This document shows, piece by piece, positions 7,137 to 50,960 of a stretch of DNA of 64,000 nt; positions within the stretch are counted from its first letter, which is position 1, and the number at the start of each line of letters is the position of its first letter. The notes beneath the pieces were generated by a model that worked only from the letters and a program-made list of their open reading frames with translations, did no database searches and had not been told where the DNA came from. Origin of the DNA: an uncultured Oscillospiraceae bacterium (lineage in GTDB: Bacteria > Bacillota > Clostridia > Oscillospirales > Oscillospiraceae); the NCBI GenBank assembly GCA_944385415.1, contig CALWXC010000008.1, positions 36,446 to 100,445 on the forward strand, read 5' to 3'. Made by a program: the position numbers and the translations under genes.

Positions 7137-7450
7137 GGGGCGCGCTGCCTGGGTTGCAGCGCGCCCGTTGTCGTATGGCGGGACTTGTCCCCGCTGTTGG
7201 AAGTATTTCGTATTATCGTACGCACCTTGTAGGGGCCGATGCCTACATCGGCCCGCACACGGCACCACCGAACATCGCACCACTGGCATGCACCGAAAAT
7301 TACCGGACAGGTTGGTATAATCCACTCTGTAGGCGGGGGCTTGCCTCCGCCGCTGTGCCGCACTGCCGACCACCATCGGCGTAGGGGCCGGCATCCCTGA
7401 CGGCCCCGGATGGGGTGCGGTGTGGGCGCGTCAAGGATGCCGCGCCCTAC
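7137..7450. repeat. Cluster of GTAG-type REP-like palindromes
   Basis: GTAGGGGCCGATGCCTACATCGGCCC (7229), GTAGGCGGGGGCTTGCCTCCGCC (7329), GTAGGGGCCGGCATCCCTGACGGCCCC (7381), inverted copy 7424-7450. Related units occur at 27855, 49989-50184 and 59535-59767. Confidence 0.8.
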
Positions 7451-7556
7451 GGCAGTGCTGCGATGCGCCGCGCCACGCCCGGTGCGGCACTTTTCAATCG
7501 ACCGCGTCAGCGGTCACCACACTTCTTCACGTTTCACTATTCCATCTTACTTTGAC

Positions 7557-7981
7557 AAAAGGCCGCCGTCCGCCACCCGCTGACGGGGTGGGGACGGCGG
7601 CCTTGGGGCTTACGCCCCGGGGATTGCGCCATCTGCGGATGGCGCTTTGGGACGATTGGGGATTTCGCCCGCTGCGGCGGGCGGGAGTTCGCGCCGTGCG
7701 CGGCGCGGGTGTTTCGCTGGCTGCGGCCAGCGGGAGTTTCGCCCGTTGCGACAGGCGACCAGAGGCCCTGCCTCTGGACCCCGCGATTTTGGGCTGCACG
7801 CCGCCCGTTGGCAAGAGTGGTCGGCGAGGAATTTTTCGTCAGAGCAAGGTGTGGGTTCGCAGCCATACTGGATGTATGGCAAGAAACCGCACCGCAGCTA
7901 TGGCGGAAAAGGCCCGGCGAGCACCGCAGACACACGGGCGGTGGGTAGCCCTCACAAGAAAAAATCGAGTAAAACTTTTTA
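7557..7981 (+). repeat. Modular palindromic dispersed element, longest copy
   Basis: Modules AAAAGGCCGCCGTCC..GGACGGCGGCCTT, GCGCCATCTGCGGATGGCGC, TTCGCGCCGTGCGCGGCGCG, ending AAAAAATCGAGTAAAACTTTT; homologous to six other loci in the window. Confidence 0.85.
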
Positions 7982-8206
7982 TTCTGTGGTGGCGTCATGG
8001 GCTTCCCAGCAGGATGTCTCCCGGTTCCAGAATTCCGTGTGACTGCCGTCGTCGTCCATGGTCAGCCGGGCCAGATAGTTGCGCCGGTCCTTGCCATAGG
8101 CTTGTCGGGCCTCTGCTTCCGATTGGGTGACAAACACGTTGAGATAATCGCTGTGGCCCTCGGGGCCAAGGAACTGGATGCCGGTCTCATAGTAGACCAA
8201 TGCCAT
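7979..8206 (-). CDS. Small hypothetical protein (75 aa)
   Basis: Strong G/C third-position bias, GGAAGG SD-like site, upstream TGcTACAAT extended -10 (plus-strand 8243-8251). Confidence 0.65.
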   Translation of the reverse strand: MALVYYETGIQFLGPEGHSDYLNVFVTQSEAEARQAYGKDRRNYLARLTMDDDGSHTEFWNRETSCWEAHDATTE

Positions 8207-8309
8207 GGGGTATCCCGCCTTCCCGCTATATGTTTGTTGTTTATTGTAGCAGATTTCGCCGTCCTTGGATAGGGGCGGCGCGAGAAATTTCCTGCCGCCA
8301 GCCTGTCCC

Positions 8310-8338
8310 TTGCAAAAGGGCCGGGCCGGTGCTATACT
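8310..8338 (+). promoter_or_regulatory. SigA-type promoter of the S2P-scpA-scpB operon
   Basis: TTGCAA-17bp-TATACT with TG extension. Confidence 0.7.
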
Positions 8339-8367
8339 GGTTAAAACGACCCAAAGGAGGGGCTTTT

Positions 8368-9060
8368 TTGCACGGATTTACCGCGTGGCTCCATCAACTG
8401 CAATTCGGCTGGTTGTCGGACATGCTGCTCATCGTTCTGGCGTCTCTGCTGTGCATCACCATCCATGAGACGTGTCACGGTCTGGCCGCCTACCGCCTGG
8501 GGGACCCCACGGCCAAGCTGGCCGGACGGCTGACGTTGAACCCCCTGCGCCACATCGACATTCTCGGCCTTTTGATGATGGCCGTGGCACGGTTCGGCTG
8601 GGCCAAGCCGGTGCCGGTCAATATGTACAATTTCAAAAACCCCAAACGGGACATGGCCCTGACGGCCCTGGCCGGACCCGTCTCCAACATTCTGCTGGCC
8701 TGGGCGGCCCTGGTGGTCCGGGGACTGCTGATGGTGCTGATGATCCACCGGGGCCCCAATAGTCTGGGCCAATGGCTGATTACCTTTACCGAGTATGTGG
8801 CCATCCTGTCGGCCGGTCTGGCGGTGTTCAACCTGATTCCCATTTCCCCCCTGGATGGCTCCAAGGTCCTCTTTGCCGTTCTGCCGTCTCAAAAGTATGC
8901 CAAGCTCATGCGCTATGAGCGGTACGGTATGCTGTTGCTGATGGTGGTGCTGCTGGCTGGTTGGCTGGACGGCCCCCTCTACTATCTGCGCACCGGCCTG
9001 CTGAACCTGCTGCAGCCCCTGGCCCTGTGGCCTGCGGAACTGCTGCTGCGGCTGCGGTAG
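8368..9060 (+). CDS. Site-2 (M50 family) membrane metalloprotease
   Basis: HETCH zinc motif, RLTLNPLRH, AGPVSN, FNLIPISPLDGS. TTG start after AAAGGAGG. Confidence 0.92.
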   Translation: MHGFTAWLHQLQFGWLSDMLLIVLASLLCITIHETCHGLAAYRLGDPTAKLAGRLTLNPLRHIDILGLLMMAVARFGWAKPVPVNMYNFKNPKRDMALTALAGPVSNILLAWAALVVRGLLMVLMIHRGPNSLGQWLITFTEYVAILSAGLAVFNLIPISPLDGSKVLFAVLPSQKYAKLMRYERYGMLLLMVVLLAGWLDGPLYYLRTGLLNLLQPLALWPAELLLRLR

Positions 9061-19450: not shown

Positions 19451-21343
19451 ATGGAAAAGCAGCAATTCAAAGCCGAATCCAAACGGCTTCTTGATCTGAT
19501 GATCAACTCCATTTACACCCATCAGGAGATTTTTCTCCGTGAGATCATTTCCAACGCCTCCGACGCCATGGACAAGCTGGCTTATTTGAGCCTGACGGAC
19601 CAGAACGTGGGCCTCAGCCGCAGCGACTTCGCCATCGATATTACGGTGGACGAGAAGGAACGTCTGCTGACTGTGTCCGACAATGGCATCGGCATGAGCC
19701 GGGAGGACATGGAGGAAAATCTGGGCACCATCGCCAAGAGCGGTTCCCTCCAGTTCAAAAAGGACATGGAACAGCAGGAGGACATCGACATCATCGGCCA
19801 GTTCGGCGTGGGCTTCTACTCCGCCTTTATGGTGGCCGACGCCGTCACCGTCATTTCCAAGAAGTACGGTTCCGATGAGGCCTGGATGTGGCAGTCCTCC
19901 GGCGCCGACGGCTATACCATCACCCAGTGTGAAAAGGACGCCGCCGGTACCCAGGTCATCATGCACCTGAAAGCCGACACCGAGGACGAGAACTACAGCC
20001 GGTTCCTCCAGGAACACGAACTGCGGTCTCTGGTCCGCAAATACTCCGACTATATCCGCTATCCCATCCGCATGGACGTGACCAAGACCCGCGTCAAGGA
20101 GGAAACCAAGGACAGCGACAAGCCCGAGTATGAAACCTACACGGAGAACGAGACCCTCAACTCCATGGTGCCCCTGTGGCAGCGGGCCAAGAAGGACGTC
20201 ACCGAGGAGGAGTACAACCGGTTCTATCAGGAGAAGTTCTTCGACTATGAAAACCCCCTGGCCACCATCCATCTGAGCATCGAGGGCAACATCACCTATA
20301 AGGCCCTGCTCTATATCCCTGCCCGGGCCCCCTATGACTTCTATACCAAGGAGTACAAGAAGGGCTTGCAGCTCTATTCCTCCGGCGTTCTGATTATGGA
20401 GAACTGTGAGGACCTGCTGCCGGAGCACTTCCGCTTTGTCAAGGGCATTGTGGATTCCCAGGATCTGAGCCTGAACATCTCCCGTGAGATGCTCCAGCAT
20501 GACCGTCAGCTGAAACTCATCGCCTCCAATCTGGAAAAGAAGATCAAGTCCGAATTGAAGAAGCTCCTGGAAAACGACCGGGAGAAGTACGAGAAGTTTT
20601 TCAACGCCTTTGGCCGCAACCTGAAATACGGTCTGGTGTCCGAGTACGGTATGCATAAGGAACTGCTCCAGGATTTGATGCTGTTCTGGTCCAGCAAGGA
20701 GCAGAAGCTGGTAACCCTCCAGGAGTATGTGGACGGTATGGCCGAGGGCCAGGAGCACATCTACTTTGCCGCCGGTGAGAGCCGCCAGCGCCTGTCCCAG
20801 CTGCCCCAGATGGAGCTGCTCCAGGACAAGGGCTACGACGTGCTGTTCTTCACAGAGGATGTGGACGAATTTATTCCTCAAACCCTCCAGAAGTTTGCCG
20901 AAAAGGACTTCAAGAACATTGCGTCCGACGACCTGGGCCTGACCTCCGACGAGGAGAAGAAGGCCATGGAGGAGAAGAACGAAGCCGCCAAGCCCACCCT
21001 GGATTTCATCAAGGAGACCCTGGGCGACCGGGTCAAGGACGTGCGGCTCAGCGCCACCCTCAAGAGCCATCCGGTCTGCCTGGTTCCCGACGAGGGCATG
21101 AGCTTCGAGATGGAGAAATACTTCCAGAAGATGAACCCGGAAATGGGCTTCAAGGCCGGCCGGATTCTGGAGCTGAACCCGGAGCACGCCGTCTTTGCCA
21201 CCTTGCAGATTGCCGTGGCCCAGGACCCGGAGAAGGCCAAGAAGTATGTGGAGGTCCTCTATGACCAGTCCTTGCTCATGGCGGGCCTGCCTATCGACAA
21301 CCCCACCGAGTATACCGACCGCATCTGCTCTTTGATGCAGTAA
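19451..21343 (+). CDS. htpG: Molecular chaperone HtpG (Hsp90)
   Basis: NSIYTHQEIFLREIISNASDA, DNGIGM, IGQFGVGFYSAF. Confidence 0.98.
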   Translation: MEKQQFKAESKRLLDLMINSIYTHQEIFLREIISNASDAMDKLAYLSLTDQNVGLSRSDFAIDITVDEKERLLTVSDNGIGMSREDMEENLGTIAKSGSLQFKKDMEQQEDIDIIGQFGVGFYSAFMVADAVTVISKKYGSDEAWMWQSSGADGYTITQCEKDAAGTQVIMHLKADTEDENYSRFLQEHELRSLVRKYSDYIRYPIRMDVTKTRVKEETKDSDKPEYETYTENETLNSMVPLWQRAKKDVTEEEYNRFYQEKFFDYENPLATIHLSIEGNITYKALLYIPARAPYDFYTKEYKKGLQLYSSGVLIMENCEDLLPEHFRFVKGIVDSQDLSLNISREMLQHDRQLKLIASNLEKKIKSELKKLLENDREKYEKFFNAFGRNLKYGLVSEYGMHKELLQDLMLFWSSKEQKLVTLQEYVDGMAEGQEHIYFAAGESRQRLSQLPQMELLQDKGYDVLFFTEDVDEFIPQTLQKFAEKDFKNIASDDLGLTSDEEKKAMEEKNEAAKPTLDFIKETLGDRVKDVRLSATLKSHPVCLVPDEGMSFEMEKYFQKMNPEMGFKAGRILELNPEHAVFATLQIAVAQDPEKAKKYVEVLYDQSLLMAGLPIDNPTEYTDRICSLMQ

Positions 21344-21426
21344 GGGATTTCGCGCCGTGCGCGGCGCGACCGGGGACGCTGTCCCCTGGACCCCTGCGAT
21401 TTTTGAAAAAATCGAGTAAACTTTTT
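21344..21426 (+). repeat. Short copy of the dispersed element
   Basis: GGGATTTCGCGCCGTGCGCGGCGCGACCGGGGACGCTGTCCCCTGGACCCCTGCGATTTTTGAAAAAATCGAGTAAACTTTT; near reverse complement of 39654-39741. Confidence 0.85.
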
Positions 21427-21480
21427 ATGTTGGGGCCCGGGTGCAGTATTTGGGATTCAAAGCAACATAGGAAATAATTT

Positions 21481-21509
21481 TGCCCCGGATTCCATGGGAA
21501 TCCGGGGCA
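21481..21509. terminator. Hairpin between convergent htpG and GH-like gene
   Basis: TGCCCCGGATTCC-atg-GGAATCCGGGGCA, 13-bp perfect stem. Confidence 0.7.
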
Positions 21510-21510
21510 T

Positions 21511-21563
21511 TTAAAGTTTTACGCTATTATTTTAAAAATTGCAGGGTACGGGGCAACGCCCCG
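21511..21563 (-). repeat. Diverged inverted copy of the element terminus
   Basis: TAAAGTTTTACGCTATTATTTTAAAAATTGCAGGGTACGGGGCAACGCCCCG aligns by eye with AAAAGTTTTACTCGATTTTTTCAAAAAATCGCAGGGGTCCAGGGGGCAGCGCCCC (39656 onward). Confidence 0.6.
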
Positions 21564-21574
21564 CAAACCACCTG

Positions 21575-22597
21575 TCACTCCTCGTCATCCGCCGTCACCG
21601 CCGGACGCAGCACGCCGTAATCGGAAAAGCGGGTGTCCCGGGAGTCGGTGAGAAAAACCACGCGATCATGGAGCGTGTCGTAGACGTCGGAGAAGGTGTC
21701 CACCAGGTCCTGGACCTGGGAGCCGTCGCTGCTGGTCAGATACACCCGGTCGGCGTAGGCGGCCAGAGCGGGGTCTGTGGTGGCCATAGACAGGGCAGGG
21801 GAGCTCTCTGTCTGGTTGGAGGACAGCCGCTGGGCGGCGTCCAGCACAGCGGCCACCCGGTCACCGTCATAGGCGATGTTCTGACTGGAAGGGAAGGTGA
21901 AGTCCGACAGGACCACTTCCTCAAAGCCCAGACCGGCCAGCTCTGAGAGAATGCTCTGGAGATAGGAAAGGACCTGCTGATTGGCCGGGTCCAGCCAGTA
22001 ACAGCTGTCGCTGTCCATCCACAACGCGCCGTTGTCCAGGGGAAGGCCGCAGGACTGATTGGCCAGGGCATAGGCGCTGTCCCGGAACGCCGGCAGACGG
22101 GCGATGAGATAGACGCGGCCGTTGGCGTTGAGATCGGCAATAAGCTGGTCCACAGCGGTCACATCCACCGAGGAGGACGTCTCCGCGCCGGGAATGGCGG
22201 TGGAGTAACAGAAATTGCCGTAAATGCTTTTCACGTCCAGCAGCACAGCCACCTGTCCCTCCGCGGACTGGACGGCCTCCAAAATGGCGTCAGTCTCGTC
22301 CAGCATATCGGTGGTCACATAAATGCCCTCCAGACGGGTCATGGCGCTGGTGTCCTCCATGGGACTGGTGTCCACTACCACCTGGGCGTCGGGCAGGGGT
22401 TCCAGCTTTTCGCGGACGGCGCTGCGCTCTGTGGACGGAGAGAACTCCAGCCGGACGCCGTCGGCGGAGTAAACCAGAAAGCGCTGCAAATAGATGACAA
22501 AGCCTATGGCGGTCAGCAGCAGCAGCACGACGATGATAACCAGGGCAACGGCCAGCTTGCGCAGACGCACCCGGGTGCGATAGGGAATGTATGGCAA
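21575..22597 (-). CDS. Membrane-anchored putative glycoside hydrolase-like (TIM-barrel) protein
   Basis: One N-terminal TM helix; YLIARLPAFRD, WLDP and GFEEVVLSDFTFP motifs resemble DUF4015-like GH folds. TTG start after GAGGAGG. Confidence 0.6.
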   Translation of the reverse strand: MPYIPYRTRVRLRKLAVALVIIVVLLLLTAIGFVIYLQRFLVYSADGVRLEFSPSTERSAVREKLEPLPDAQVVVDTSPMEDTSAMTRLEGIYVTTDMLDETDAILEAVQSAEGQVAVLLDVKSIYGNFCYSTAIPGAETSSSVDVTAVDQLIADLNANGRVYLIARLPAFRDSAYALANQSCGLPLDNGALWMDSDSCYWLDPANQQVLSYLQSILSELAGLGFEEVVLSDFTFPSSQNIAYDGDRVAAVLDAAQRLSSNQTESSPALSMATTDPALAAYADRVYLTSSDGSQVQDLVDTFSDVYDTLHDRVVFLTDSRDTRFSDYGVLRPAVTADDEE

Positions 22598-22610
22598 GGT
22601 TGCAGCCTCC

Positions 22611-23579
22611 TCAGCAGGTGGCGCTCAGCTGGCACCAGTCGTCCATCTGATTGCAGCCGGTGATGGTGAGACCCGCCGCTTCCAGCGCCGCCTTTACCTC
22701 ATCCAGCCGCACATTGAGCACGCCGGAGCACAGGAACACGCCGCCCTTGCGGAGGAAATGGGGCACCACCGGGGCCAGGGGAATGATGACGTCGGCCACA
22801 ATGTTGGCCAACACCACATCGTAGCCGCCTTCTGCCAGTTCCTCCATGCGGGCCTGGTCTTCAATGACATTGCCGGTGACGGCGGTAAACCGGGAGCCGT
22901 CCAGACCGTTCATGGCGGCGTTTTCTCGGGCGATGTCCTCGGCCTTGGGGTCAATGTCCACACCCGTGGCCGTGGCGGCGCCCAGCAGCAGCGCCGTAAA
23001 GGACAGAATACCGCTGCCGCTGCCCAGGTCAATGACCCGCTCGCCGCCGTGAATGCACTGTTCCAGCGCCTTCATGCACATCTGGGTAGAGGCGTGGGCG
23101 CCGGTACCGAAGATCATGCCCGGGTCCAGCCGCACCTCAATGCGGCCCTCGGGGTTTTCCGGGTGAAGCCACTGGGGCACCACCAACAATTTCTCACCGA
23201 TGGGCAAGGGCTGATAATACTGCTTCCAGCTGTTCTCCCAATCCTCATCCCGGCAGCCCGCCGCGGACACCGTCAGGGGGCCAAAGTCCACGGCCGGAAA
23301 CTGCCGGCGCAGCAGGGAAAGCTGCTCGCTGAGGTAGGACGCGGTTTCCACAGCCTGGGGCGTGTCCTCCACATAGAGGCGAATTTGGGAAACACCGGCC
23401 ATCTTTTCTTCCAGTTCCTCGTCCACATAGTCCCAATACTGACGATTCTGCTCCAAAAAATCATGAAACTCCTGTTGATCGTCCATAATAAAGCTGTCGA
23501 AGCCCAAGGCCGTCAGCCGTGCCGCCACCAGCTCAATGCCCGCGGGCGCGGTGGCGATGGTCAGTTCGATCCATTGCAT
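22611..23579 (-). CDS. prmA: Ribosomal protein L11 methyltransferase
   Basis: DWENSWKQYY, LDPGMIFGTGAHAST, IDLGSGSGIL, ANIVADVI. RBS AAGGAGG; promoter TTGTCA-17-TAAACT at 23691-23663. Confidence 0.95.
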   Translation of the reverse strand: MQWIELTIATAPAGIELVAARLTALGFDSFIMDDQQEFHDFLEQNRQYWDYVDEELEEKMAGVSQIRLYVEDTPQAVETASYLSEQLSLLRRQFPAVDFGPLTVSAAGCRDEDWENSWKQYYQPLPIGEKLLVVPQWLHPENPEGRIEVRLDPGMIFGTGAHASTQMCMKALEQCIHGGERVIDLGSGSGILSFTALLLGAATATGVDIDPKAEDIARENAAMNGLDGSRFTAVTGNVIEDQARMEELAEGGYDVVLANIVADVIIPLAPVVPHFLRKGGVFLCSGVLNVRLDEVKAALEAAGLTITGCNQMDDWCQLSATC

Positions 23580-23775
23580 GTAGTATGCCTCCTTATTGAC
23601 AGGCGACACCGTCTCCCTGCGGCCCGTTTGCCACAACGGATACAGCGTTGCCATAGTTTATTAGTTTACAGGAAAAGCGCCGTTCTGACAAGCAGTTTCC
23701 AACATATTTTACTTTTTTGACGAACTGTGGTATGATGACCCAATAGGTCACCATACCCTGGAAAGGATGAATTGA

Positions 23776-25047
23776 TTGAACAGACGAACAGAACTTCTGC
23801 CCGGTGTATTCCTCACCTGTGTGCAGAGTGAAAAATTCAAAACCGGTTGTCTCAGCCTCTCCCTGCTGCGCCCCCTGCGGCGGGAGGAAGCGGCGGCCAA
23901 TGCGCTGCTGCCGGCGGTGCTTCTGCGGGGCTGCGAGGGCTGCCCGGACATGCGGGAGATTTCCGCATTCCTCGACGGCTACTATGGGGCCAGCGTGGGC
24001 AGTCTCGTCCGCAAAAAAGGCGAGGTGCAGACCACGGGCTTCTATGCGGCGTTTCTGGAGGACCGCTACGCATTGGACGGCGAACCCATTCTGGCCCCCA
24101 TGGTGGACTTTGTCTGCCGCCTGCTGCTAAAACCGGTGACGGAGGACGGCGCGTTTGTCTCCGCCTTTGTGGACGGCGAAAAGCAGAACCTCATCAACAC
24201 CATGGAAGCCCGCATCAACAACAAGCGCAGCTATGTGGTGTCCCAGCTGCTGCGGACCATGTGCAAGGACGAGGCCTACGGCCTGCCCCGTCTGGGTGAT
24301 GTGGAAGAGGTGGAGCCCATCACGGCTAAGAGCCTTTATGGCCACTACCGCCACATTCTGGCCCACTCCCGCATGGAGATTTTCTACCACGGAAGCTGTG
24401 ACGCTGACACGGTGGCGGACCTGCTGAAAGCGGGCCTGTCGGACCTGCCCCGCGGCGAGGCCGACGCGTTCTCCACCGTGATTGTGGACCAGGCGGAGAC
24501 GGTCCAGACGAAGCGGGAAGCGCTGGACGTGACCCAGGGCAAGCTGGCCATGGGCTTCCGTCTGGGATGCACCGCCGACGATGTGGAGCGGTATCCGGCG
24601 GCCCTGATGATGAACGCCGTATTCGGTTCCGGCGTCACCAGCAAGCTGTTTCTGAATGTCCGGGAAAAGATGTCCCTGTGCTATTATGCCAGCTCCACCA
24701 TTGAAAAGTTCAAAGGCGTTATGGTGGTGTCGTCGGGCATTGAATTTGACAAATTTGAGGTGGCCCGGGACGAGATTCTCCACCAGCTGGAACTGACCCG
24801 GCAAGGGGAGATCACCGAGGAAGAGTTGGAGGGCGCCCGCATTGCGCTGCTGTCCTCCCTGAAAACCGGCATGGACAGTCCCGGACGGCTGGACGATTAC
24901 GCCCTGGGCCAGGCTATTTTGGGTCAGGAGGGCACCATGGCCGATCTGGCGAACTCGTTGGAGACGGTGACGGCGGAGCAGGTGGCCGAGGCCGCCCGTC
25001 GGGTGACGCTGGACACGGTGTATTTTATTGAGGGGGTGGCAAAATGA
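23776..25047 (+). CDS. M16 peptidase-like protein, inactive subunit (YmfF/YfmF-like)
   Basis: KFKTGCLSL, SKLFLNVREKMSLCYYASS; no HxxEH; paired with the next gene. Confidence 0.85.
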   Translation: MNRRTELLPGVFLTCVQSEKFKTGCLSLSLLRPLRREEAAANALLPAVLLRGCEGCPDMREISAFLDGYYGASVGSLVRKKGEVQTTGFYAAFLEDRYALDGEPILAPMVDFVCRLLLKPVTEDGAFVSAFVDGEKQNLINTMEARINNKRSYVVSQLLRTMCKDEAYGLPRLGDVEEVEPITAKSLYGHYRHILAHSRMEIFYHGSCDADTVADLLKAGLSDLPRGEADAFSTVIVDQAETVQTKREALDVTQGKLAMGFRLGCTADDVERYPAALMMNAVFGSGVTSKLFLNVREKMSLCYYASSTIEKFKGVMVVSSGIEFDKFEVARDEILHQLELTRQGEITEEELEGARIALLSSLKTGMDSPGRLDDYALGQAILGQEGTMADLANSLETVTAEQVAEAARRVTLDTVYFIEGVAK

Positions 25048-26324
25048 AAAAGGTTGTGCTGGACCAGCTGCGGGAGACATTTTACGAGGAGCGACTGCCC
25101 AACGGGCTTTTGATCCGCGTCATTCCCCGGCCCGACTTTGCCAAGACGTATTCCTTTTTTGCCACGGACTTCGGTTCCATCGACACCAAGTTCACCATGG
25201 ACGGCAAGGTGTATGAGACGCCCGCCGGTGTGGCCCACTATCTGGAGCATAAGCTGTTCGACATGCCCGAGGGCAATGTGATGCAGCAGTTTTCCGCCCT
25301 GGGCGGCAGTCCCAACGCCTTCACCGGCTATTCCATGACGGCATATCATGTAGAATCCACGGAAAACTGGCGGGAAAATCTGGAACTGCTGCTGCGGTAC
25401 GTGTCCACGCCCTATTTCACCGAGGAGAGCGTGGAGAAGGAGCGGGGCATCATCGCCCAGGAAATCCGCATGTACGAGGACAGTTCCGGCTCCCGGATGT
25501 ATGAGAACCTCTTCGCGGCCCTGTATCAGCACCATCCCATTCGGGTGCCCATCGCCGGTACCGTGGAATCCATCCAGGATATCACTGCCCAGACGCTGTA
25601 CGACTGCCACAAGGCGTTTTATGACCCGTCCAATATGATGCTCTGTGTGGCGGGTCCTGTGGACCCGGAGCTGGTGGTAAAGAGTGCAAGAGAGATTCTG
25701 CCCAAGACTCCCGGCGGCGTGGGTGGCCGGGACTACGGCCCCGCCGAGCCCCTGACAGCGGAGAAGATGGCGCGGGTGGAGCAGAACATGGAGGTGTCCA
25801 TGCCGGGCTTCACCGTGGCGTTCCGCTGCGACACGCCCAAAACCGGCGCGGATATTCTCCGGCAGGAGCTGGTGGGCGATTTGGCGGCGGAGCTGCTGGT
25901 GGGCGAGTCCACGGCCTTTTATACGAAGCTGTACGAGGACGGTCTCATCGACTGCGATTTTTCCGCCGGTTACGAGGGCGTCAAAACCCTGGGTATGCTG
26001 TCCATCGGCGGCGACAGCAACGAGCCGGAGCGGGTGGTGGACGCCGTGCTCAAAGAGGCGGAACGGCTGGGCCGGGAGGGCGCCGACGAAGCCCTGTTCC
26101 AGCGGCTCAAGCGTTCGGCCTTTGGACGGCGGATCCGGGAGCTTGACAGTTTCGAGAACATCTGCTACCGTATGTGCCAGAGCACCTTTGAGGGGGCGTT
26201 CTATTACGACTTCCCGGATTTGTACCGCTCCATCACCCTGGACGAGACGGTAAAAATGATCCGGGATACGGTGGTCCCCCAGCGGGCGGCCCTCTCCCTC
26301 ATCTATCCCAACGCGAAAGGATGA
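25044..26324 (+). CDS. M16 peptidase (YmfH/YfmH-like)
   Basis: PAGVAHYLEHKLF (HxxEH), NAFT, VEKERGIIAQEIRMYED. Confidence 0.9.
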   Translation: MKKVVLDQLRETFYEERLPNGLLIRVIPRPDFAKTYSFFATDFGSIDTKFTMDGKVYETPAGVAHYLEHKLFDMPEGNVMQQFSALGGSPNAFTGYSMTAYHVESTENWRENLELLLRYVSTPYFTEESVEKERGIIAQEIRMYEDSSGSRMYENLFAALYQHHPIRVPIAGTVESIQDITAQTLYDCHKAFYDPSNMMLCVAGPVDPELVVKSAREILPKTPGGVGGRDYGPAEPLTAEKMARVEQNMEVSMPGFTVAFRCDTPKTGADILRQELVGDLAAELLVGESTAFYTKLYEDGLIDCDFSAGYEGVKTLGMLSIGGDSNEPERVVDAVLKEAERLGREGADEALFQRLKRSAFGRRIRELDSFENICYRMCQSTFEGAFYYDFPDLYRSITLDETVKMIRDTVVPQRAALSLIYPNAKG

Positions 26325-26330
26325 CGCATT

Positions 26331-27203
26331 GTGTTTTTGGCATCCCCCATCACGTTCCCCAATCTGGGCATTGACATCAACCCCTCGCCGGTGGCCTTTT
26401 CTCTTGGTGATAAACCCATCTACTGGTATGGCATTCTCATTGCCATCGGCTTTGCCCTGGCGGTGCTCTACGGCTGCCGCTGCGCCAAACAGTTCGGTCT
26501 CACCGAGGACAACATTCTCGATATGCTGCTGCTGGCCGCCCCCCTGGGCATCATCGGCGCACGGCTCTATTACTGCATCTTCTATTGGGAGCTGTACGCC
26601 GACAATCCCATCTCCGTCCTCTATATCTGGGAGGGTGGTCTGGCCATCTACGGCGGCGTCATCGGCGCGGCCATCGGTGTGATTCTCCATTCCCGATGGA
26701 AAAAAACGCCCCTGCTGCCCATGCTGGATATCGGTTCCATGGGATTGCTCATCGGTCAGTCCATCGGTCGCTGGGGCAACTTCATGAACCGGGAGGCCCA
26801 CGGCGGCATCACCGACAGCTTTTTTAAAATGGGACTTCAGGACAGCGCCGGTGTGGTGACGTATTATCACCCCACATTCCTCTATGAATCCGTCTGGAAC
26901 GCGGTGGGATTTCTGGCCCTGCACTTCTATTTCAAAAAGCGCCGCCGCTATGACGGTCAGATTTTCACCCTGTATGTGGCCTGGTACGGCCTGGGCCGGG
27001 CCTGGATTGAGGGCATGCGCACCGACAGCCTGTACCTGTTCAACACCGGCATCCGGGTCAGTCAACTGTTGGCGGCCCTGTCCTGCCTGGTGGCCGTGGG
27101 CTTTTTGGTGTGGAACCTGAAAATCCGGCCCCATGACCCGGCCAATCTGGCGGTCAACCGGCAGAAAGCCGCCGCCGCGGAAGCGGAAGAAAAGACGGAC
27201 TGA
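26331..27203 (+). CDS. lgt: Prolipoprotein diacylglyceryl transferase
   Basis: IYWYGILI, GARLYY, WEGGLAIYGG, GRWGNFMNREAHG, HPTFLYES. Confidence 0.95.
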   Translation: MFLASPITFPNLGIDINPSPVAFSLGDKPIYWYGILIAIGFALAVLYGCRCAKQFGLTEDNILDMLLLAAPLGIIGARLYYCIFYWELYADNPISVLYIWEGGLAIYGGVIGAAIGVILHSRWKKTPLLPMLDIGSMGLLIGQSIGRWGNFMNREAHGGITDSFFKMGLQDSAGVVTYYHPTFLYESVWNAVGFLALHFYFKKRRRYDGQIFTLYVAWYGLGRAWIEGMRTDSLYLFNTGIRVSQLLAALSCLVAVGFLVWNLKIRPHDPANLAVNRQKAAAAEAEEKTD

Positions 27204-27284
27204 CTCTTCCCACAAGGGGAAAACCGTGGTATAATGGCGAAAAATAAGGAAACAACCCCACAGGACTGAAAGGAGCGATTCCCT

Positions 27285-27725
27285 ATGGCAACATTCAATG
27301 ATTATCTGGAGACGTTCAAGGGCATGGCCGTGGAGGGTGCTCAGACGGCAGTGAAGAAGACCCGCCAGCTGGCATCCGTGGCCAAGGCCAATCTGGCCAT
27401 CCGCACCGAAGAGGAAAAGATCAAAAAGGCCCAGATTGAGCTGGGCAAGCTGTACTATAAGGACTATATTGTGGGCCAGACCCCGGACCCGGCGGTGTAT
27501 ACGCCTTGGTGTGAGCGGATTTCCGAGTCCAAGATCGCCATCGAGGACTTGAAAATCGCCATTGAGGAGCTGCGCAGCCAGGGCCATGACGACGACGATG
27601 AGATTGTCACCGACGATTATGTGGTGGATATCACCGAGGATGATCTGGTGACAGAGCCCAAGTCTGCCGAATCCGTTGTCATCGACGTGGACGTTGCCGA
27701 CAACGACGACGAAGACAAGCAGTAA
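27285..27725 (+). CDS. Hypothetical coiled-coil protein with acidic tail
   Basis: RBS AAAGGAG, upstream TGgTATAAT, ELGKLYY motif, D/E-rich C-terminus. Confidence 0.75.
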   Translation: MATFNDYLETFKGMAVEGAQTAVKKTRQLASVAKANLAIRTEEEKIKKAQIELGKLYYKDYIVGQTPDPAVYTPWCERISESKIAIEDLKIAIEELRSQGHDDDDEIVTDDYVVDITEDDLVTEPKSAESVVIDVDVADNDDEDKQ

Positions 27726-27854
27726 AGAAGCAGGAACGCATACCAACCGGGGACGCCGCAGCAGCAATGTCCCCGGTTTTGCGTCCATGGGAAAGACCGA
27801 ATGTATATAATTGCCCGGCGGTGTGCATCGAAATCCCCGGACGGAATGCGGTGC

Positions 27855-28101
27855 GGGCGCGTCAGGGATGCCGCGCCCTACGGTGGGGGGTACAAAAAAG
27901 GCCGCCGTCCACCACCCGCGATGGGGTGGGGACGGCGGCCTTGCGGCATACGCCGCGGGGATTGCGCCATCTGCGGATGGCGCTGGGAACGATGGGGGAG
28001 TTCGCGCCGTGCGCGGCGCGGGAATTTCGCCCGCTGCGGCGACCACCGCAGACACACGGGTGGTGGGTAGCCCTCACAAGAAAAAATCGAGTCAAACTTT
28101 T
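27855..28101 (+). repeat. Medium copy of the dispersed element with 5' GTAG-REP
   Basis: Inverted GTAG REP at 27855-27881, hairpin modules, and a tail CACCGCAGACACACGGG..GGGTAGCCCTCACAAGAAAAAATCGAGTCAAACTTTT nearly identical to 7922-7980. Confidence 0.85.
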
Positions 28102-28128
28102 AATGTTGGGTGCGTGGGAAAGTGCGGG

Positions 28129-29544: not shown

Positions 29545-30237
29545 TCAGCGATTGACAAACCACTGGGTCCAGTAGCCGTCCACATGGCCCACGCCGATCT
29601 CGGTGTACTTGTCCGAGAGGATGTTGGCCCGGTGACCGGGGGAATTCATCCAGCCGTCCACCACGGCTTCCGCCGTGCGGTAACCCATGGCGATGTTCTC
29701 CGCGGCGGCCCGGTAGGTGATGCCCAGAGAACGCATCATTTCAAAGGGCGTGCCGTAGGTGGGGCTGTTGTGGTCAAAGTACCGGTTGTCCCGCATGTCC
29801 TGGGACTTGAGCCGTGCACCGTCGCTGAGATCAGTGCTGAGGGTCAGGGGAGACAGGCCGTAGGCGGCACGCTCCTGATTGACCAGGGCCACCACCTGCC
29901 GCTCCAGGGAGCTGACGGAACCGCTGTCCGGCGTGGTATCCGTGCCGGGCTTGTTGTCGGTGTCCGGGGTGGTGTCCGGCTTGCTGTCGGTATCGGGCGT
30001 CGTATCAATGTCGGGCGTATTGTCGGTATCGGGCGTATTGTCGACGTCGGGCGTGTTGTCTGTATCCGGCGTCGTGTCCGGCACCGTCTGGTCGGGACAG
30101 AGCTGGATGAAATTCCAGTTGTTCCAGTTCCAATGCCAATTGGGCCGGGCGGCGGACGCCGGAGTGACCATGGCGCCGGTCAGCAGCAGGGCCGCCAGAG
30201 CGGCAGATACGGTACGATATGTATGTTTCTGGTTCAT
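29545..30237 (-). CDS. Secreted CAP (SCP/YkwD-like) domain protein with D/T/P-rich linker
   Basis: Signal peptide, LVNQERA, KSQDM..YFDHNSPTYGTPFEMM, AENIA, WMNSPGHRANIL, WTQWF. Confidence 0.9.
   Translation of the reverse strand: MNQKHTYRTVSAALAALLLTGAMVTPASAARPNWHWNWNNWNFIQLCPDQTVPDTTPDTDNTPDVDNTPDTDNTPDIDTTPDTDSKPDTTPDTDNKPGTDTTPDSGSVSSLERQVVALVNQERAAYGLSPLTLSTDLSDGARLKSQDMRDNRYFDHNSPTYGTPFEMMRSLGITYRAAAENIAMGYRTAEAVVDGWMNSPGHRANILSDKYTEIGVGHVDGYWTQWFVNR
29935..30085 (-). repeat. Coding tandem repeat (TPDTDN-type, 18-bp units)
   Basis: PDTTPDTDNTPDVDNTPDTDNTPDIDTTPDTDSKPDTTPDTDNKPGTDTTPD in the CAP protein. Confidence 0.85.
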
Positions 30238-31701: not shown

Positions 31702-31765
31702 GCGGATATGCTGCATGCTCTAATGGTCCCAGAATGGCGGTAATGGGCATCGAAGACGAAAAGAT

Positions 31766-31810
31766 AAAAGTTTTACTCGATTTTTTTCAAAAAAATCGAG
31801 TAAAACTTTT
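31766..31810. repeat. 45-bp perfect palindrome made of two element termini
   Basis: AAAAGTTTTACTCGATTTTTTT-C-AAAAAAATCGAGTAAAACTTTT (22-bp arms). Confidence 0.9.
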
Positions 31811-32145
31811 TATTTTGCGTTTCCGGTACTGCCATGCGGAATCCCCGAGGTCGGTGGCGGATTGGGCAAAATGACAGATTTCCTGCACCAGCAATTTAAT
31901 AAAATACTGTGCAATAGAATATAAAAACAGGTGTCTATATGGTGAAAACATACGGTTAAAATCTGTATTTGATAGATAGACGTACGGAAAATCCAAAAAA
32001 CATCGGTATCAAACGGAATTTCATGGTGCAAGACAGAGTTTTTGTTTTGAAAATTCACTGACGGTAATGTAAATAATTTGGGGCCTGCCGGGGCCTTTGA
32101 TTCTGGATAAATCGTACAAACTTTTTTGAATGGGGGAATTCCTGT

Positions 32146-38376: not shown

Positions 38377-38937
38377 GTGGAGGATGAGGCCATCATTGAC
38401 CTGTACTGGCAGCGGGATGAGGAAGCCCTGCGCCAGAGCGACAAAAAGTACGGCGCGTTCTGCCGTCAGATTGCCCTGCGGATTGTGGGGATTCTGGAGG
38501 ATGCGGAGGAGTGCGTCAATGACACCTGGCTGCGGGCCTGGGAAGCCATGCCGCCGTCGCGGCCCTGCCCCCTGCGGGCGTTCCTGGGCCGAATCACGAG
38601 AAATCTTTCACTGGACCGGTATCGGGCCGGGCGGGCCCAGAAGCGGGGAGGCGGTACCATGGATGTATTGCTGGAGGAACTGACCCATTGTCTGCCGTCC
38701 ACCGAATCGGTGGAGGGACAGTACGATGCCAATGAGACGGCGGCGGTCATCAATCGCTTTCTGGCGGAGCTGCCGCCGGAGAAACGGCAGATGTTTCTGC
38801 GCCGGTACTGGTTTGGCGACAGCGTGGAGGAGATTGCCGGACGGTTTGCCATGCGGCCCGGCACAGTCAAATCCAGTCTCCACCGGCTGCGTCAACGGCT
38901 GCGGGAGACGCTGGAAAAAGAGGGGGTGGCCGTATGA
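38377..38937 (+). CDS. ECF RNA polymerase sigma factor
   Basis: DAEECVNDTWLRAW, FLGRITRNLSLD, region 4 FLRRYWFGDSVEEIA..GTVKSSLHRLRQRL. GTG after AAGGAGGT. Confidence 0.92.
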   Translation: MEDEAIIDLYWQRDEEALRQSDKKYGAFCRQIALRIVGILEDAEECVNDTWLRAWEAMPPSRPCPLRAFLGRITRNLSLDRYRAGRAQKRGGGTMDVLLEELTHCLPSTESVEGQYDANETAAVINRFLAELPPEKRQMFLRRYWFGDSVEEIAGRFAMRPGTVKSSLHRLRQRLRETLEKEGVAV

Positions 38938-39653
38938 GCCGGGCGGAAAAGCTGTTTGAGGCCATCGGTCTGGTGGATGATGCGTACATCGAAGAGGCCG
39001 CCGACGCCCAGGTGGTGCGGACCCCGTCCCAGTGGCAGCGCTGGGGCACGTTGGCGGCCACACTGGTTCTGGTGGCGGGCCTGGGCCTGGCGGCTACCAC
39101 CCAGCTGCGGGGCTGCGGCTCCAAGAGCATGACCGCCGATACAGCGGCGCCGGAGAGCGGCATGGCGCAGGAGAGTACCACCGCCGACAGTGCATCCGAT
39201 AACGTCACGGGCGGCAGTGCGGAAAGCGCGACTGGCGAGGACAAGGGCGACGGCGCTTCCGACGGAACGGACAATGGTATGGCCCTGCCCACCGACGCAA
39301 TCGGTACGGAACTGGCGGTATTGACGATATCGGACGGCGCATGGACCGTGGACCGTCACACGGCAGTGGAGGCGGCGGAACAGGTCACAGTGACCGACAC
39401 TTATTTGGTGACCAACAATGGCGGCGCGGACCAGGAGCTGGAAGCGCAGATTGTGGCTCCCGGTGAGACGGTGGAACTCGACATGGTGACCACCAGCACC
39501 GAGACGGAGTTGGTACTGATGCCGGTGGAGAATGTGACGCCGGGCGTGTGGACTGTCACAGTTACCGCCGCCGACGGCTACGAAGTGGAAGGGCTGACAG
39601 AGGGTGAACTGTCCTGGGAGAGCCACGCTTTTACCGTGTCTCAGCCGGAATAG
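38934..39653 (+). CDS. Putative membrane anti-sigma factor
   Basis: ATGA overlap with the ECF gene, N-terminal LFEAIGLVDDAYIEEA, one TM helix, acidic extracytoplasmic domain. Confidence 0.65.
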   Translation: MSRAEKLFEAIGLVDDAYIEEAADAQVVRTPSQWQRWGTLAATLVLVAGLGLAATTQLRGCGSKSMTADTAAPESGMAQESTTADSASDNVTGGSAESATGEDKGDGASDGTDNGMALPTDAIGTELAVLTISDGAWTVDRHTAVEAAEQVTVTDTYLVTNNGGADQELEAQIVAPGETVELDMVTTSTETELVLMPVENVTPGVWTVTVTAADGYEVEGLTEGELSWESHAFTVSQPE

Positions 39654-39741
39654 ATAAAAGTTTTACTCGATTTTTTCAAAAAATCGCAGGGGTCCAGGGG
39701 GCAGCGCCCCCGGTCGCGCCGCGCACGGCGCGAAATCTCCC
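39654..39741 (-). repeat. Short copy of the dispersed element, reverse orientation
   Basis: Reverse complement of 21344-21426 with few differences; begins directly after the TAG of the anti-sigma gene. Confidence 0.85.
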
Positions 39742-39797
39742 AATCGGCCCCCAGTTGCCGTCCCTTGCAGGGCGGCAGCCGGGGGCGTTCTTCCGTC

Positions 39798-49487: not shown

Positions 49488-49898
49488 ATGAACGCCTACC
49501 ATCTGCAAATCGTCACGCCGGACGGTCTGCGCTTTGACGGAGAGGCTCAGAGCCTGCTGGTGCGTACCACCACGGGTGATGTGGGCATCCGTGCCCGCCA
49601 CGCCAACTATGTGGCGCCGTTGGGTATGGGTGTTGCCCGGGTGACCATTGACGGTCAGGAGCGCCGCGGCGCTTGTGTTGGCGGCATGGTATCGGTGCTC
49701 AAAGGCGAGGTGCGGCTGTTGGCCACCAGCTTTGAGTGGGCCGAGGATATTGATGTGGAACGGGCCAAGGCCGCCGAGGCCGGCGCCCGCGCCATCCTGG
49801 ACCATCCCGACCAGCATGACGCCGAGACGCTGGAACTGGCCGAAGGCCGTCTGCGCCGGGCGTTGATCCGCCAGAGCGCGGCGGAAAAGCCCCAATAA
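49488..49898 (+). CDS. atpC: F1 ATP synthase subunit epsilon
   Basis: LQIVTPD, GDVGIRARHA, AEDIDVERA. Confidence 0.95.
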   Translation: MNAYHLQIVTPDGLRFDGEAQSLLVRTTTGDVGIRARHANYVAPLGMGVARVTIDGQERRGACVGGMVSVLKGEVRLLATSFEWAEDIDVERAKAAEAGARAILDHPDQHDAETLELAEGRLRRALIRQSAAEKPQ

Positions 49899-49909
49899 GG
49901 TTTGACAAA

Positions 49910-49937
49910 GGAGTGCTGCACCTGCAGCACTCCTTTT
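49910..49937 (+). terminator. Terminator of the atp operon
   Basis: AAAGGAGTGCTGCA-cc-TGCAGCACTCCTTTT. Confidence 0.8.
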
Positions 49938-49988
49938 GTGCCGTTTTCGGTTCCGCCCTATCAATAGGAAGGGACCGCCGCCAGAATA

Positions 49989-50435
49989 TGCGGGGCGGGA
50001 CCTGTGTGTCCCGCCGCCGGAAGGCACTTGCTGGTTTCCACCGGCCGATTGGTTCCAATCTGTAGGGCGGGGACTTGCCCCGCCGCCAGGATGCACCATT
50101 AACCATTCTGGACGTAGGAGCCGGCATCCCTGACGGACCCGGATGGTAATACAATATGGGCGCGTCAAGGATGCCGCGCCCTATGGATAGTGGGGGTATA
50201 AAAAGGCCGCCGTCCGCCACCCGCGATGGGGTGGGGACGACGGCCTTACGGCTGACGCCGTGGGGATAGCGCCATCTGCGGATGGCGCTTTGGGACGACT
50301 GGGGATTTCGCCCGCTGCGGCGGGCGGGAATTTCGCTGGCTGCGGCCAGCGGGTATTTCGCCCCGTGCGCGGGGCAACCGGGGGCGCTGCCCCCTGGACC
50401 CCTACGTTTTTTTGAAAAAAATCGAGTAAAACTTT
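49989..50435 (+). repeat. GTAG-REP cluster plus medium copy of the dispersed element
   Basis: REPs at 49989, 50062, 50114 and inverted 50158-50184; modules 50200-50435 end AAAAAAATCGAGTAAAACTTT. Confidence 0.85.
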
Positions 50436-50453
50436 AGTGTTTGGGTGCGGTGG

Positions 50454-50888
50454 TTACAGATAGGGCCACAAATCCCGTTGGAGACGCTGTTCGGCGGCAA
50501 TCAAATCTGTGGCCACGGTCCGGGCCTCCTGGGCCGCCTGGGGGTATCGATTACAATACTTATGCAGGGACTTGATGCCCATACTGCACCCGTCGGCCAA
50601 CAGGTCCGCCACCGACTGATCCCCCGGCTGCAGCGTCAGTTTCACGGTGGTTTTGAGACTGCTCATGCCCTTTGCCACAGCGCTGGGCGCTTTGGGCCGT
50701 CCGTCAAACCGGTGGAGCAGGTCATGGGTCTGCCGCCACAAAATTTGATGGTCCTCCTTGCACCGGTGCAGCTGGCGGCGCAGCTGGGGGCTTTCCACCG
50801 ACGGCAGCACCTCGTCAATGGCGTGCAGCGCCATCTGGATGCCGGAATCACATTCGCCCAACAGTTTGCGGGTATCGTCCTGAATCAT
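50454..50888 (-). CDS. Conserved hypothetical helical (ferritin-like) protein
   Basis: RBS CAGGAGG; helical pattern CDSGIQMA..DEV..HQ and DGCSMGIKSL, suggestive of a four-helix bundle. Confidence 0.6.
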   Translation of the reverse strand: MIQDDTRKLLGECDSGIQMALHAIDEVLPSVESPQLRRQLHRCKEDHQILWRQTHDLLHRFDGRPKAPSAVAKGMSSLKTTVKLTLQPGDQSVADLLADGCSMGIKSLHKYCNRYPQAAQEARTVATDLIAAEQRLQRDLWPYL

Positions 50889-50960
50889 GGTAAGTACCTC
50901 CTGTGTCCGTTTGGGATAAGGATGCACCGTTTTGCCGCAAACTATAAGGGGAATGGTCCA

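Follow-up and report, generated by a model that had tools for sequence, protein, structure and literature searches.

What are the hairpin-rich repeats that lie dispersed among the housekeeping genes of an uncultured Oscillospiraceae bacterium, and is their pairing maintained in DNA or in RNA? The question is raised by a stretch of 64,000 nucleotides (assembly GCA_944385415.1, contig CALWXC010000008.1, positions 36,446 to 100,445), referred to here as the window, which has a GC content of about 60%, carries the gene order tig-clpP-clpX-lon and is contained in reads from chicken-gut metagenomes. The bacterium is an Avoscillospira-like Firmicute and not a proteobacterium. The original prediction, made from the letters of the window alone, recognised an ordered, multicopy family of hairpins with one conserved and one variable side; this family is borne out by counts of a 21-mer, counts of a hairpin pattern and a covariance model, all of which agree. 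The repeats probably constitute a previously unnamed, non-coding interspersed mosaic DNA repeat of Oscillospiraceae and related Clostridia, which resembles both the BOX elements and the bacterial interspersed mosaic elements (BIMEs).

The three-hairpin core and its copies in the window

When copies from about 30 genomes are aligned, the terminus that the original prediction had singled out proves to be the 3' portion of a conserved core roughly 90 nucleotides long, which consists of three hairpins and a tail (P1-P2-P3-tail). The 5' part of the core consensus reads GG(A/T)ATTTCGC-N4-TGCG-N4-GCGA-CC-N3-GGC-KCT-GCC-N3-GG and the 3' part reads (A/G)AYCC(T)G-CGATTTTTT-G-AAAAAAATCG-AGTAAAACTTT, where AGTAAAACTTT is the tail. 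P1 corresponds to TTTCGC-N4-TGCG-N4-GCGA, P2 to CC-N3-GGC-KCT-GCC-N3-GG and P3 is an AT-rich hairpin of the form N5-TTTT-G-AAAA-N5, while the tail can be generalised as R-N-N-AAAAYTTT. The three stems are recovered by RNAalifold, and a covariance model built on the same alignment finds 137 core copies, divergent subfamilies included, in 0.73 Mb of related loci. Over 134 distinct copies 97.2% of the cells are paired, double-sided changes occur at 22 of the 22 pairs and compensatory cells number 423 versus 90 in shuffles. The covariation score of 0.368 compares with 0.113 in shuffles, none of 500 of which reaches the observed value, and controls in which the pairing partner is slid along the alignment score 0.089 at most. 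Subfamilies contain fully compensated P3 stems (CAAGCTTTT/AAAAGCTTG, CCACCTTTT/AAAAGGTGG, GAATTTTTT/AAAAAATTC and CCAGTTTTT/AAAAACTGG) and, while these stems covary, the P3 tip TTTT-N-AAAA and the tail R-N-N-AAAAYTTT remain constant; the loops of the core are strongly conserved, as is the tail. A three-hairpin core which is conserved in its loops, its P3 tip and its tail across genera of differing GC content is an unusual trait.

The core is present in more than 45 genomes of Clostridia that range from 28 to 64% GC. Scanning one genome per species, the 19-mer AAAAATCGAGTAAAACTTT occurs in at least 116 contigs over the same 28-64% range of GC, and nearly all of the matches listed belong to metagenome-assembled genomes (MAGs) and isolates of Clostridia/Oscillospiraceae. 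Carriers include Avoscillospira, Faecivivens, Anaerotruncus, Merdivicinus, Fimenecus, Gallacutalibacter, Anaerofilum and Acutalibacteraceae, among others. Relatives of the window include the sister MAG BRZ_BM__bin16, of which contig L028 is syntenic with positions 20408-27984 at 93-96% identity, and an isolate of Avoscillospira sp. whose HPF protein is identical to that of the window. Phage and plasmid collections contain nothing that matches the core, and IMG/VR yields only seven contigs. The original prediction could not assign the repeats to a named family, and this still holds: the whole window lacks any Rfam 15 match at gathering thresholds, and scans by E-value of 7300-8100, 50180-50470 and L029:5120-5320 give at best 26.9 bits against a threshold of 81. 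The terminus string yields only chance matches in the literature, where topic searches (REP/RAYT, MITEs, Clostridia, Oscillospiraceae) return nothing on the family.

Among the carriers is the cultured mouse-gut isolate Anaerotruncus sp. G3(2012), which has three cores of the same orientation at a spacing of 243 nucleotides (L092:6080-6659) and whose read depth suggests dozens of copies, making it a practical experimental strain. Public short-read contigs and unitigs end within the repeats (L135-L137, L162), and unitig breaks fall in the window repeats at 21373/21396, 27876/28063 and 31787; because contigs end there, the family fragments the assemblies of these gut bacteria.

Detection within the window is clear-cut. 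Allowing up to three mismatches, the 21-mer AAAAAATCGAGTAAAACTTTT has eight matches in the window and none in 100 shuffles that preserve dinucleotides, and the P1 pattern TTTCGC-N4-TGCG-N4-GCG has 15 matches where 0.23 are expected, every one of them within the named loci. Tandem Repeats Finder reports 25-nucleotide arrays at 7659-7750 and 50301-50363. A covariance model made from the copies of other genomes recovers the loci of the original prediction and nothing else credible. Besides minimal copies, the window, BRZ_BM__bin16 and Avoscillospira genomes contain a long form in which extra modules precede the core, namely one to four additional 25-nucleotide P1 units with differing stems and varying order, hairpin B (GCGCCATCTGCGGATGGCGC), a small hairpin and a long head hairpin, A. 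The module order is A-small-B-(P1)n-P2-P3-tail with n of 1 to 4 in the window, and the P1 units run head-to-tail in a single orientation with a period of 25 nucleotides. The copies are as follows, with the 21-mer and covariance-model matches given for each.

7557-7981, plus strand: long copy 1, with hairpin A at 7559-7604, small hairpin, hairpin B at 7626-7645, four 25-nucleotide P1 units at 7663-7757, P2 at 7759-7777 and P3 left arm at 7783-7790; P3 is interrupted by a nested palindrome, and its right arm and the tail lie at 7959-7979 (21-mer 7959-7979, plus; interrupted core 7726-7983, plus)
7791-7958, plus strand: nested independent palindromic element of 168 nucleotides, in the P3 tip of copy 1
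21337-21430, plus strand: minimal copy, P1-P2-P3-tail, which begins directly 3' of the htpG TAA stop (21-mer 21406-21426, plus; intact core 21337-21430, plus)
21508-21588, minus strand: degenerate copy (P2, decayed P3, tail) abutting the stop of the DUF4015 gene (degenerate covariance-model match over the same span, minus)
27895-28105, plus strand: long copy 3, with hairpin A at 27898-27942, hairpin B at 27964-27983, one P1 unit and one truncated unit, the last 44 nucleotides of the nested palindrome at 28037-28080, then the tail at 28081-28101 (21-mer 28081-28101, plus; rearranged core 27993-28105, plus)
31766-31810, no strand assigned: 45-bp perfect palindrome of two halves, each a tail plus P3 arm (21-mers 31766-31786, minus, and 31790-31810, plus; palindromic covariance-model match 31762-31814)
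39652-39746, minus strand: minimal copy with its tail 3 nucleotides past the TAG stop of the open reading frame (ORF) 38934-39653 (21-mer 39656-39676, minus; intact core 39652-39746, minus)
50200-50440, plus strand: canonical long copy 6, with hairpin A at 50203-50247, small hairpin, hairpin B, three P1 units at 50306-50376, P2, P3 and the tail at 50416-50436 (21-mer 50416-50436, plus; intact core 50345-50440, plus)
59305-59515, minus strand: long copy 7, with hairpin A at 59469-59513, hairpin B, two P1 units, P2, P3 and tail (21-mer 59309-59329, minus; intact core 59305-59399, minus)

Copy 7 has a compensated P3 variant (CAATTTTTT/AAAAAATTG) together with a variant tail. Reading the loci confirmed the ordered hairpins and the lack of terminal inverted repeats in the window copies, as originally stated, and no duplicated flank was seen at any copy; the two ends of a copy (AAAAGGCCGCC... 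and ...AAAACTTTT) are unrelated to each other. The idea of a fixed terminus as a general element end did not stand: in other genomes lineage-specific conserved sequence runs on past both sides of the core, and because of this continuation the fixed end is a feature of the genus and not of the family.

The genes flanking the copies are real and encode an EngB-like GTPase, HtpG, a DUF4015 protein, an SLH/Ig-domain protein, acetate kinase, ATP synthase epsilon, a radical-SAM protein and HPF. Look-ups of the exact protein sequence returned nothing for three flanking genes. Stop codons contact or overlap three of the window copies. In copy 1 the minus-strand ORF 7979-8377 has its stop codon overlapping the tail, the copies at 21337-21430 and 21508-21588 are separated by a conventional hairpin terminator, and the copy at 39652-39746 is antisense to the flanking plus-strand genes, with the ackA start at 39861. 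Copy 6 lies downstream of atpC and of atpC's own terminator, 18 nucleotides from the stop of the minus-strand ORF 50454-50927, and copy 7 is flanked by two minus-strand genes.

Turnover, nested elements and the accompanying REPs

Strains with an identical flanking protein were compared site by site. The spacing from atpC to the gene called next to it ranges among strains from 404 to 667 nucleotides, owing to gain and loss of repetitive extragenic palindromes (REPs) and to the loss of one 25-nucleotide P1 unit, and in some strains P3 and tail are replaced by the compensated variant GCAACTTTTT-AAAAAAAGTTGACAAAAACTTT. The htpG site has at least four alleles within one population, one of which has lost two P1 units, and the window-type allele, in which a minimal copy, a conventional terminator and a degenerate inverted copy follow one another, has no order in common with the rest. 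Two 3' alleles exist at the copy-3 site, in one of which P2 is lengthened to a 31-nucleotide perfect palindrome; REP numbers differ there too, and other strains have the canonical P2-P3-tail at this site. At the hpf site most strains hold the right half only (half P3 plus tail), and the window allele contains 25 extra nucleotides, which match the reverse complement of the adjoining tail exactly and generate the 45-bp perfect palindrome. The palindrome at 31766-31810 was considered as an empty target site, which was rejected on the grounds that most strains hold one half only. A strain allele of the region around window position 31810 (L142, about 1560-2343) carries an insertion sequence (IS) with a DDE_Tnp_1 transposase right after the solo tail (AAAACTTTTTA), downstream of hpf.

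More distant relatives differ in occupancy. Of two that were compared, the one with 69% AtpC identity has a lone P1-like hairpin and no core copy at the atpC site, and the one with 66% AtpC identity has a copy in the opposite orientation, which means that the elements are not fixed at this orthologous site. A match to a described IS or Rfam family, or fixation at orthologous positions, had been named in advance as grounds for abandoning the original prediction; it survives on both, because no Rfam match was obtained and copies turn over between strains and are not fixed at the atpC site. A metagenome scan with AtpC gave a single, uninformative hit.

Intrastrand template switching, known as quasipalindrome correction and described as a replication error of Escherichia coli, converts imperfect or one-armed inverted repeats into perfect palindromes in a single step. 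The exact inverted duplication of 25 nucleotides that forms the 45-bp hpf palindrome and the 31-nucleotide P2 palindrome appear to bear its signature. Template switching would also give rise to 'covariation' that is exclusively of the Watson-Crick type. It is a process and not a family, and explains the upkeep and growth of stems but not the dispersal of copies.

The P3 tip is a recurrent breakpoint. The core of copy 1 reads ...P2-GACCCCGCGATTTT / 168 nucleotides / AAAAAATCGAGTAAAACTTTT, so that P3 is split at its tip, and the region 7770-7985 folds as one long hairpin (z = -7.1). The insertion point of the nested element is identical in L071 (6681-6855) and L096 (3950-4124), and a relative in L072 (2042-2153) lies in an unrelated intergenic region outside any P3. 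In copy 3 a truncated P1 unit is fused to the last 44 nucleotides of this element. The original prediction had interpreted CACACGGG..CTCACAAG as an alternative, interchangeable hairpin module; this was rejected, as the sequence is the end of the nested 168-nucleotide palindromic element. Breaks at the P3 tip are likewise seen in further insertions and in solo right halves (L006, L047, L095), and palindromic hybrids of both kinds exist, tail-P3-tail at window 31766-31810 and P2-P3-P2 in L113.

These breakpoints bear on the original proposal of a non-autonomous, single-strand mobile element of HUH or rolling-circle type. Spelled out, the repeats would be moved by an HUH (Y1) transposase in the manner of the REPINs and their REP-associated tyrosine transposases (RAYTs) or of palindrome-associated transposable elements (PATEs) derived from IS200/IS605, with P3 and tail as the cleavage end. 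The clustering at the P3 tip of solo right halves, of nested insertions and of palindromes of the tail-tail and left-left type is consistent with such cleavage, as are the Watson-Crick-only hairpins with their conserved tip and 11-nucleotide 3' tail and the lack of terminal inverted repeats and target duplications; but palindrome instability alone, through hairpin cleavage or template switching, could explain the same breakpoints. The only candidate gene found is in the sister MAG BRZ_BM__bin16, where the ORF at L084:2373-2969 (minus strand; VVMPNHVH...YIENNP) matches Pfam Y1_Tnp with E = 4e-6 and is RAYT-like. This ORF goes with a second type of repeat, the GTAG REPs, and not with P1-P3. It contains two inverted GTAG REPs within its own, intact frame, and the next ORF, which looks like an operon partner, starts 4 nucleotides past its stop. 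No report of REP/RAYT systems in Clostridia was found in the literature searched.

The GTAG REPs, often arranged as inverted doublets, flank all four long copies at 14-107 nucleotides from the head and occur nowhere else in the window:

7381-7450, no strand assigned: GTAG REP doublet (REPIN-like inverted pair), head side of copy 1
27856-27881, minus strand: single GTAG REP, 14 nucleotides from the start of copy 3 (27895) and 16 nucleotides from the hairpin A stem
50062-50184, no strand assigned: three GTAG REPs (GGGCTTGCCC type plus doublet), head side of copy 6, number strain-variable
59533-59727, no strand assigned: GTAG REPs at 59533-59556 and a doublet at 59658-59727, head side of copy 7

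At the copy-3 site two additional REPs are present in other strains. The adjacency reported in the original prediction is thus correct for the long copies of the window and fails as a general rule, being lineage-specific and not obligatory. Among related loci a REP lies within 150 nucleotides of only about half of the hairpin A copies, and 13 of 37 REPs are more than 260 nucleotides from any hairpin A. GTAG hairpins are frequent only in BRZ_BM__bin16 (44 in 106 kb), are absent from 32 kb of Avoscillospira sp. LCP25S3_F1 despite its 22 P1 hairpins and number few or none in most of the remaining core-bearing genomes. The GTAG REPs are a family separate from the hairpin core and narrower in distribution.

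The GTAG REPs that the Y1-like gene carries are abundant only in the window lineage, and the hairpin family occurs in many genomes that lack them; hairpins P1, P2, P3, A and B have neither a GTAG nor a CGTC tag. No transposase adjoins any of about 130 copies in the roughly 0.9 Mb examined, and no full-length relative with the same ends and a TnpA (Y1) gene, as expected of PATEs, was found there. The orientation of the elements, unlike that of IS608-type elements, does not follow GC skew, the forward strand being G-rich in 53 loci and C-rich in 61 when skew is taken over 8 kb as a weak proxy for replication direction; the window has GC skew of one sign, yet its elements are of mixed orientation. 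HUH or rolling-circle mobilisation is for these reasons distinctly unlikely, and this part of the original prediction is not upheld.

Level of constraint, transcription and gene context

Whether the stems are maintained in DNA or in RNA can be judged from the mispairs. G:T cells represent G-U wobble on the forward strand and A:C cells represent G-U wobble on the reverse strand, and an RNA whose fold is under selection is normally far more tolerant of G-U than of A-C on its own strand. The roughly 2,650 paired cells include 25 G:T and 31 A:C (binomial p = 0.50), each accounting for about 1% of pairs, and both are at the level of random transitions. Covariation through Watson-Crick pairs only, with no wobble bias on either strand, suggests that the constraint, or the mechanism that generates the stems, acts on DNA, and we conclude with moderate confidence that pairing is maintained in DNA hairpins or palindromes and not in a folded RNA. 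The original prediction had left a single-stranded mobile element and a multicopy structured RNA side by side; of these, the DNA level (single-strand or cruciform) is favoured and a structured RNA is unsupported by the pair statistics.

Transcript data, which are assembled contigs that lack strand information, agree with transcription at a low level. A DNA run shows module depths of 2,500-2,600 against a single-copy depth of 40 (about 60-fold) and REP depths of 5-19 times single-copy, whereas in chicken-gut metatranscriptomes the ratio of module to atpC depth is 0.4-25, compared with about 62 in DNA, and REP depth is near 0. Three metatranscriptomes contain module k-mers although the neighbouring minus-strand single-copy gene has a depth of 0, and mouse-gut 'RNA' runs on the Anaerotruncus locus have DNA-like ratios. 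Some copies are transcribed and the RNA per copy is low, as expected for 3' untranslated region (3' UTR) sequence; the metatranscriptome contigs neither prove nor exclude a role of the RNA.

The position relative to genes was counted at 116 loci. The gene on the tail side is on the opposite strand, with its stop toward the tail, in 77 cases versus 35 (p = 9e-5), while the head side has no strand preference (50 versus 61). Between co-directional genes the reverse strand of the element is the sense strand in 34 cases versus 8 (p = 7e-5), and among 93 classifiable copies 33 lie in convergent and 18 in divergent intervals. Stop codons, mostly TAA, lie 0-33 nucleotides ahead of the reverse-strand tail and sometimes overlap it. 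Elements sit in gene-poor, 'safe' spots just past stop codons, notably between convergent genes, and are rapidly remodelled there. No recurrent neighbouring gene was found, the repeated 'ORFs' being the translated repeats themselves, and hairpin-array translations show up as spurious ORFs. The true neighbours include genes for ABC transporters, PurL, RluD-like and DUF1846 proteins, as chance predicts, and the genes enclosed by inverted copy pairs are ordinary.

The head of the long form differs from the core in its resemblance to a terminator. On the reverse strand hairpin A has a predicted stability of -39 to -43 kcal/mol, a run of U4-U6 comes directly after it in each of the four long copies of the window, and it looks like an intrinsic terminator in shape; a U-run of at least four follows about two-thirds of the hairpin A copies in related genomes. 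P1-P3 have no intrinsic-terminator shape in either orientation, and a terminator consensus scanner returned no site in 49800-50600. The 'termination cassette' of the original prediction is therefore plausible for the long form only, and on the strand opposite to the one proposed. At L084 two long elements are arranged head-to-head between convergent genes, each tail abutting one stop and the REPs lying centrally. Because of the gene-side bias, the proximity of stops, hairpin A with its U-run and this arrangement, the long form probably also provides the gene at its tail with a 3' UTR and a terminator. The reverse strand of the element would usually be co-transcribed with this gene, and the transcript of a long form would end at hairpin A and its U-run.

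An extension of this idea holds that the family is primarily a cis-acting structured RNA, in which the reverse-strand core serves as a 3' UTR for protection from exonucleases or for processing and termination, and its spread is secondary. The orientation bias, the tails at 0-30 nucleotides past stop codons, the terminator-like hairpin A on the appropriate strand, the three metatranscriptomes in which module k-mers occur beside a silent neighbouring gene and the strong conservation of loops and tail would all be accommodated. Against this, G-U does not exceed A-C on either strand, the minimal core is devoid of a terminator in both orientations, there is little RNA per copy, the mouse-gut 'RNA' runs resemble DNA, orthologous genes have differing copies or none and Rfam offers no match, all of which makes a primary RNA function unlikely.

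It is very improbable that the repeats are instead dispersed binding sites in which the AT-rich P3 and tail, with GC hairpins attached, are recognised by a conserved protein of the nucleoid, a topoisomerase or a regulator. Conservation of TTTTGAAAAAAATCGAGTAAAACTTT is very strong across genomes that range from 28 to 64% GC, the T4/A4 tracts are kept even where the P3 stem covaries and solo units of half P3 plus tail persist, as a binding site might require. There is, however, no association with a particular gene class, no candidate protein was found and no IHF, CodY or cre consensus was seen by eye, the latter being an inference only. The P3 arms covary and are not conserved, which favours recognition of a hairpin over that of a duplex operator.

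Further candidate functions were discarded. A promoter made up of TTGAAA-17-TAnnnT across P3 and tail was rejected because its -10 position is not conserved between genomes and a scanner finds none, and resemblances to IHF, CodY, cre and attC sites, compared with the consensus by eye only, were dropped.

Two other repeats in the window concern different genes. The minus-strand CAP-domain gene at 29545-30237 contains an 18/36-nucleotide tandem repeat of about five units at 29925-30080, and its called length of 218-238 amino acids among strains suggests a variable low-complexity linker. At 60690-60860 there are five GATTTTACA-like direct repeats, including an 18-nucleotide tandem array at 60797-60859, upstream of a gene for a PstS-like phosphate-binding protein (60925-61854) that is followed by a binding-protein-dependent ABC permease gene; they look like operator repeats of the Pho-box type.

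Affinities, mode of spread and meaning

The BOX elements of Streptococcus pneumoniae have the structure boxA-boxB(n)-boxC, and terminal inverted repeats and target duplications have been reported for them (PMC3049150). Like the hairpin family they occur in a Firmicute host, are non-coding, rich in hairpins and up to a few hundred bp long, have fixed outer modules around a short tandem internal unit whose number varies between strains, are enriched after genes and between convergent genes and show mutual nesting (PMC3049150). The variable tandem internal module between fixed ends is also seen in the hairpin family, one or two units being lost in some strains. Unlike BOX, the family is devoid of terminal inverted repeats and target duplications, and its three-hairpin core spans many genera of 28-64% GC where BOX is confined to streptococci, a comparison that is made by description and not by alignment.

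BIMEs and the REPIN-RAYT systems share with the family extragenic GC-rich palindromes in mosaics with short linkers, high and strain-variable copy numbers, a location at gene 3' ends and compensatory changes that preserve stems. The hairpins described here differ in being tandem in one orientation, in having no GTAG/CGTC tag at the palindrome end and in ending with an AT-rich hairpin and tail; the alternating orientation with linkers that is typical of BIMEs is not seen in the head-to-tail P1 units. BIMEs bind gyrase, IHF and Pol I.

Other known repeats are less similar. Dispersed terminator-like repeats near the 3' ends of coding sequences resemble hairpin A and its U-run on the reverse strand, but only the head hairpin of the long form is terminator-like and the conserved core is not. 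Miniature inverted-repeat transposable elements (MITEs) have terminal inverted repeats that match those of an IS and a target duplication of fixed length, neither of which was found. The IS200/IS605-derived PATEs have subterminal hairpins at both ends and neither inverted repeats nor target duplications; the family has hairpins and is free of such repeats and duplications, but its left end is variable and in the minimal form is not marked by a conserved hairpin. Integron attC sites, which form arrays of one orientation next to intI, do not fit the dispersal of copies in both orientations among housekeeping genes, and the core consensus contains no R''/R' boxes (RYYYAAC...GTTRRRY).

In the Avoscillospira-like lineage of the window the core has grown, P1 having been amplified into tandem 25-nucleotide units and hairpin B, the small hairpin and hairpin A added. 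Remodelling may involve slippage between units or their unequal exchange, gene conversion or replacement of alleles by sequence from other copies, and nested insertion, and intrastrand template switching may turn adjoining sequence into perfect palindromes. Spread would probably depend on an activity that acts in trans and is guided by the tip of P3, by the tail and by the conserved loops. An enzyme of this kind, specific for conserved single-stranded features, appears to be the most economical explanation for dispersal, in which the involvement of an HUH protein is hypothesis only.

Several observations weigh against reading the family as a mosaic DNA repeat that spreads in this manner. None of the sites compared provides a clean pair of empty and filled alleles with exact junctions, and transposition is thus not demonstrated; replacement of alleles between strains by homologous recombination could account for a large share of the polymorphism. 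Sampling was biased toward one subfamily by the 19-mer seed, the context counts are based on crude longest-ORF gene calls, about a third of the hairpin A copies in related genomes have no U-run of at least four, and the orientation bias with tails at 0-30 nucleotides past stops would also fit a 3' UTR function at the RNA level. The near-invariant 30 nucleotides of P3 and tail in genomes of very different GC content are unusual for selfish repeats and hint at a host function or partner. Pursuing this hint, the core might be the substrate of a vertically inherited host enzyme, such as a Firmicute counterpart of REPIN-RAYT or a recombinase that cleaves hairpin tips, or else a conserved 3'-UTR element with a cellular role, and so part of a long-lived, family-wide system and not junk in decay; this is rather unlikely.

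As an interspersed mosaic DNA repeat, the family is present in tens of copies in many uncultured gut Clostridia, whose short-read assemblies are broken by it. The covariance model could become an annotation model that would end spurious ORF calls within the repeats, and the strain-level length polymorphism beside housekeeping genes could serve for strain typing. The family also provides a clean natural example of how inverted duplication makes palindromes and renders them perfect. Should a dedicated enzyme or a function as RNA stand behind the strongly conserved core, the Firmicutes would gain a place in REPIN/RAYT-like biology or in that of 3'-UTR cassettes.

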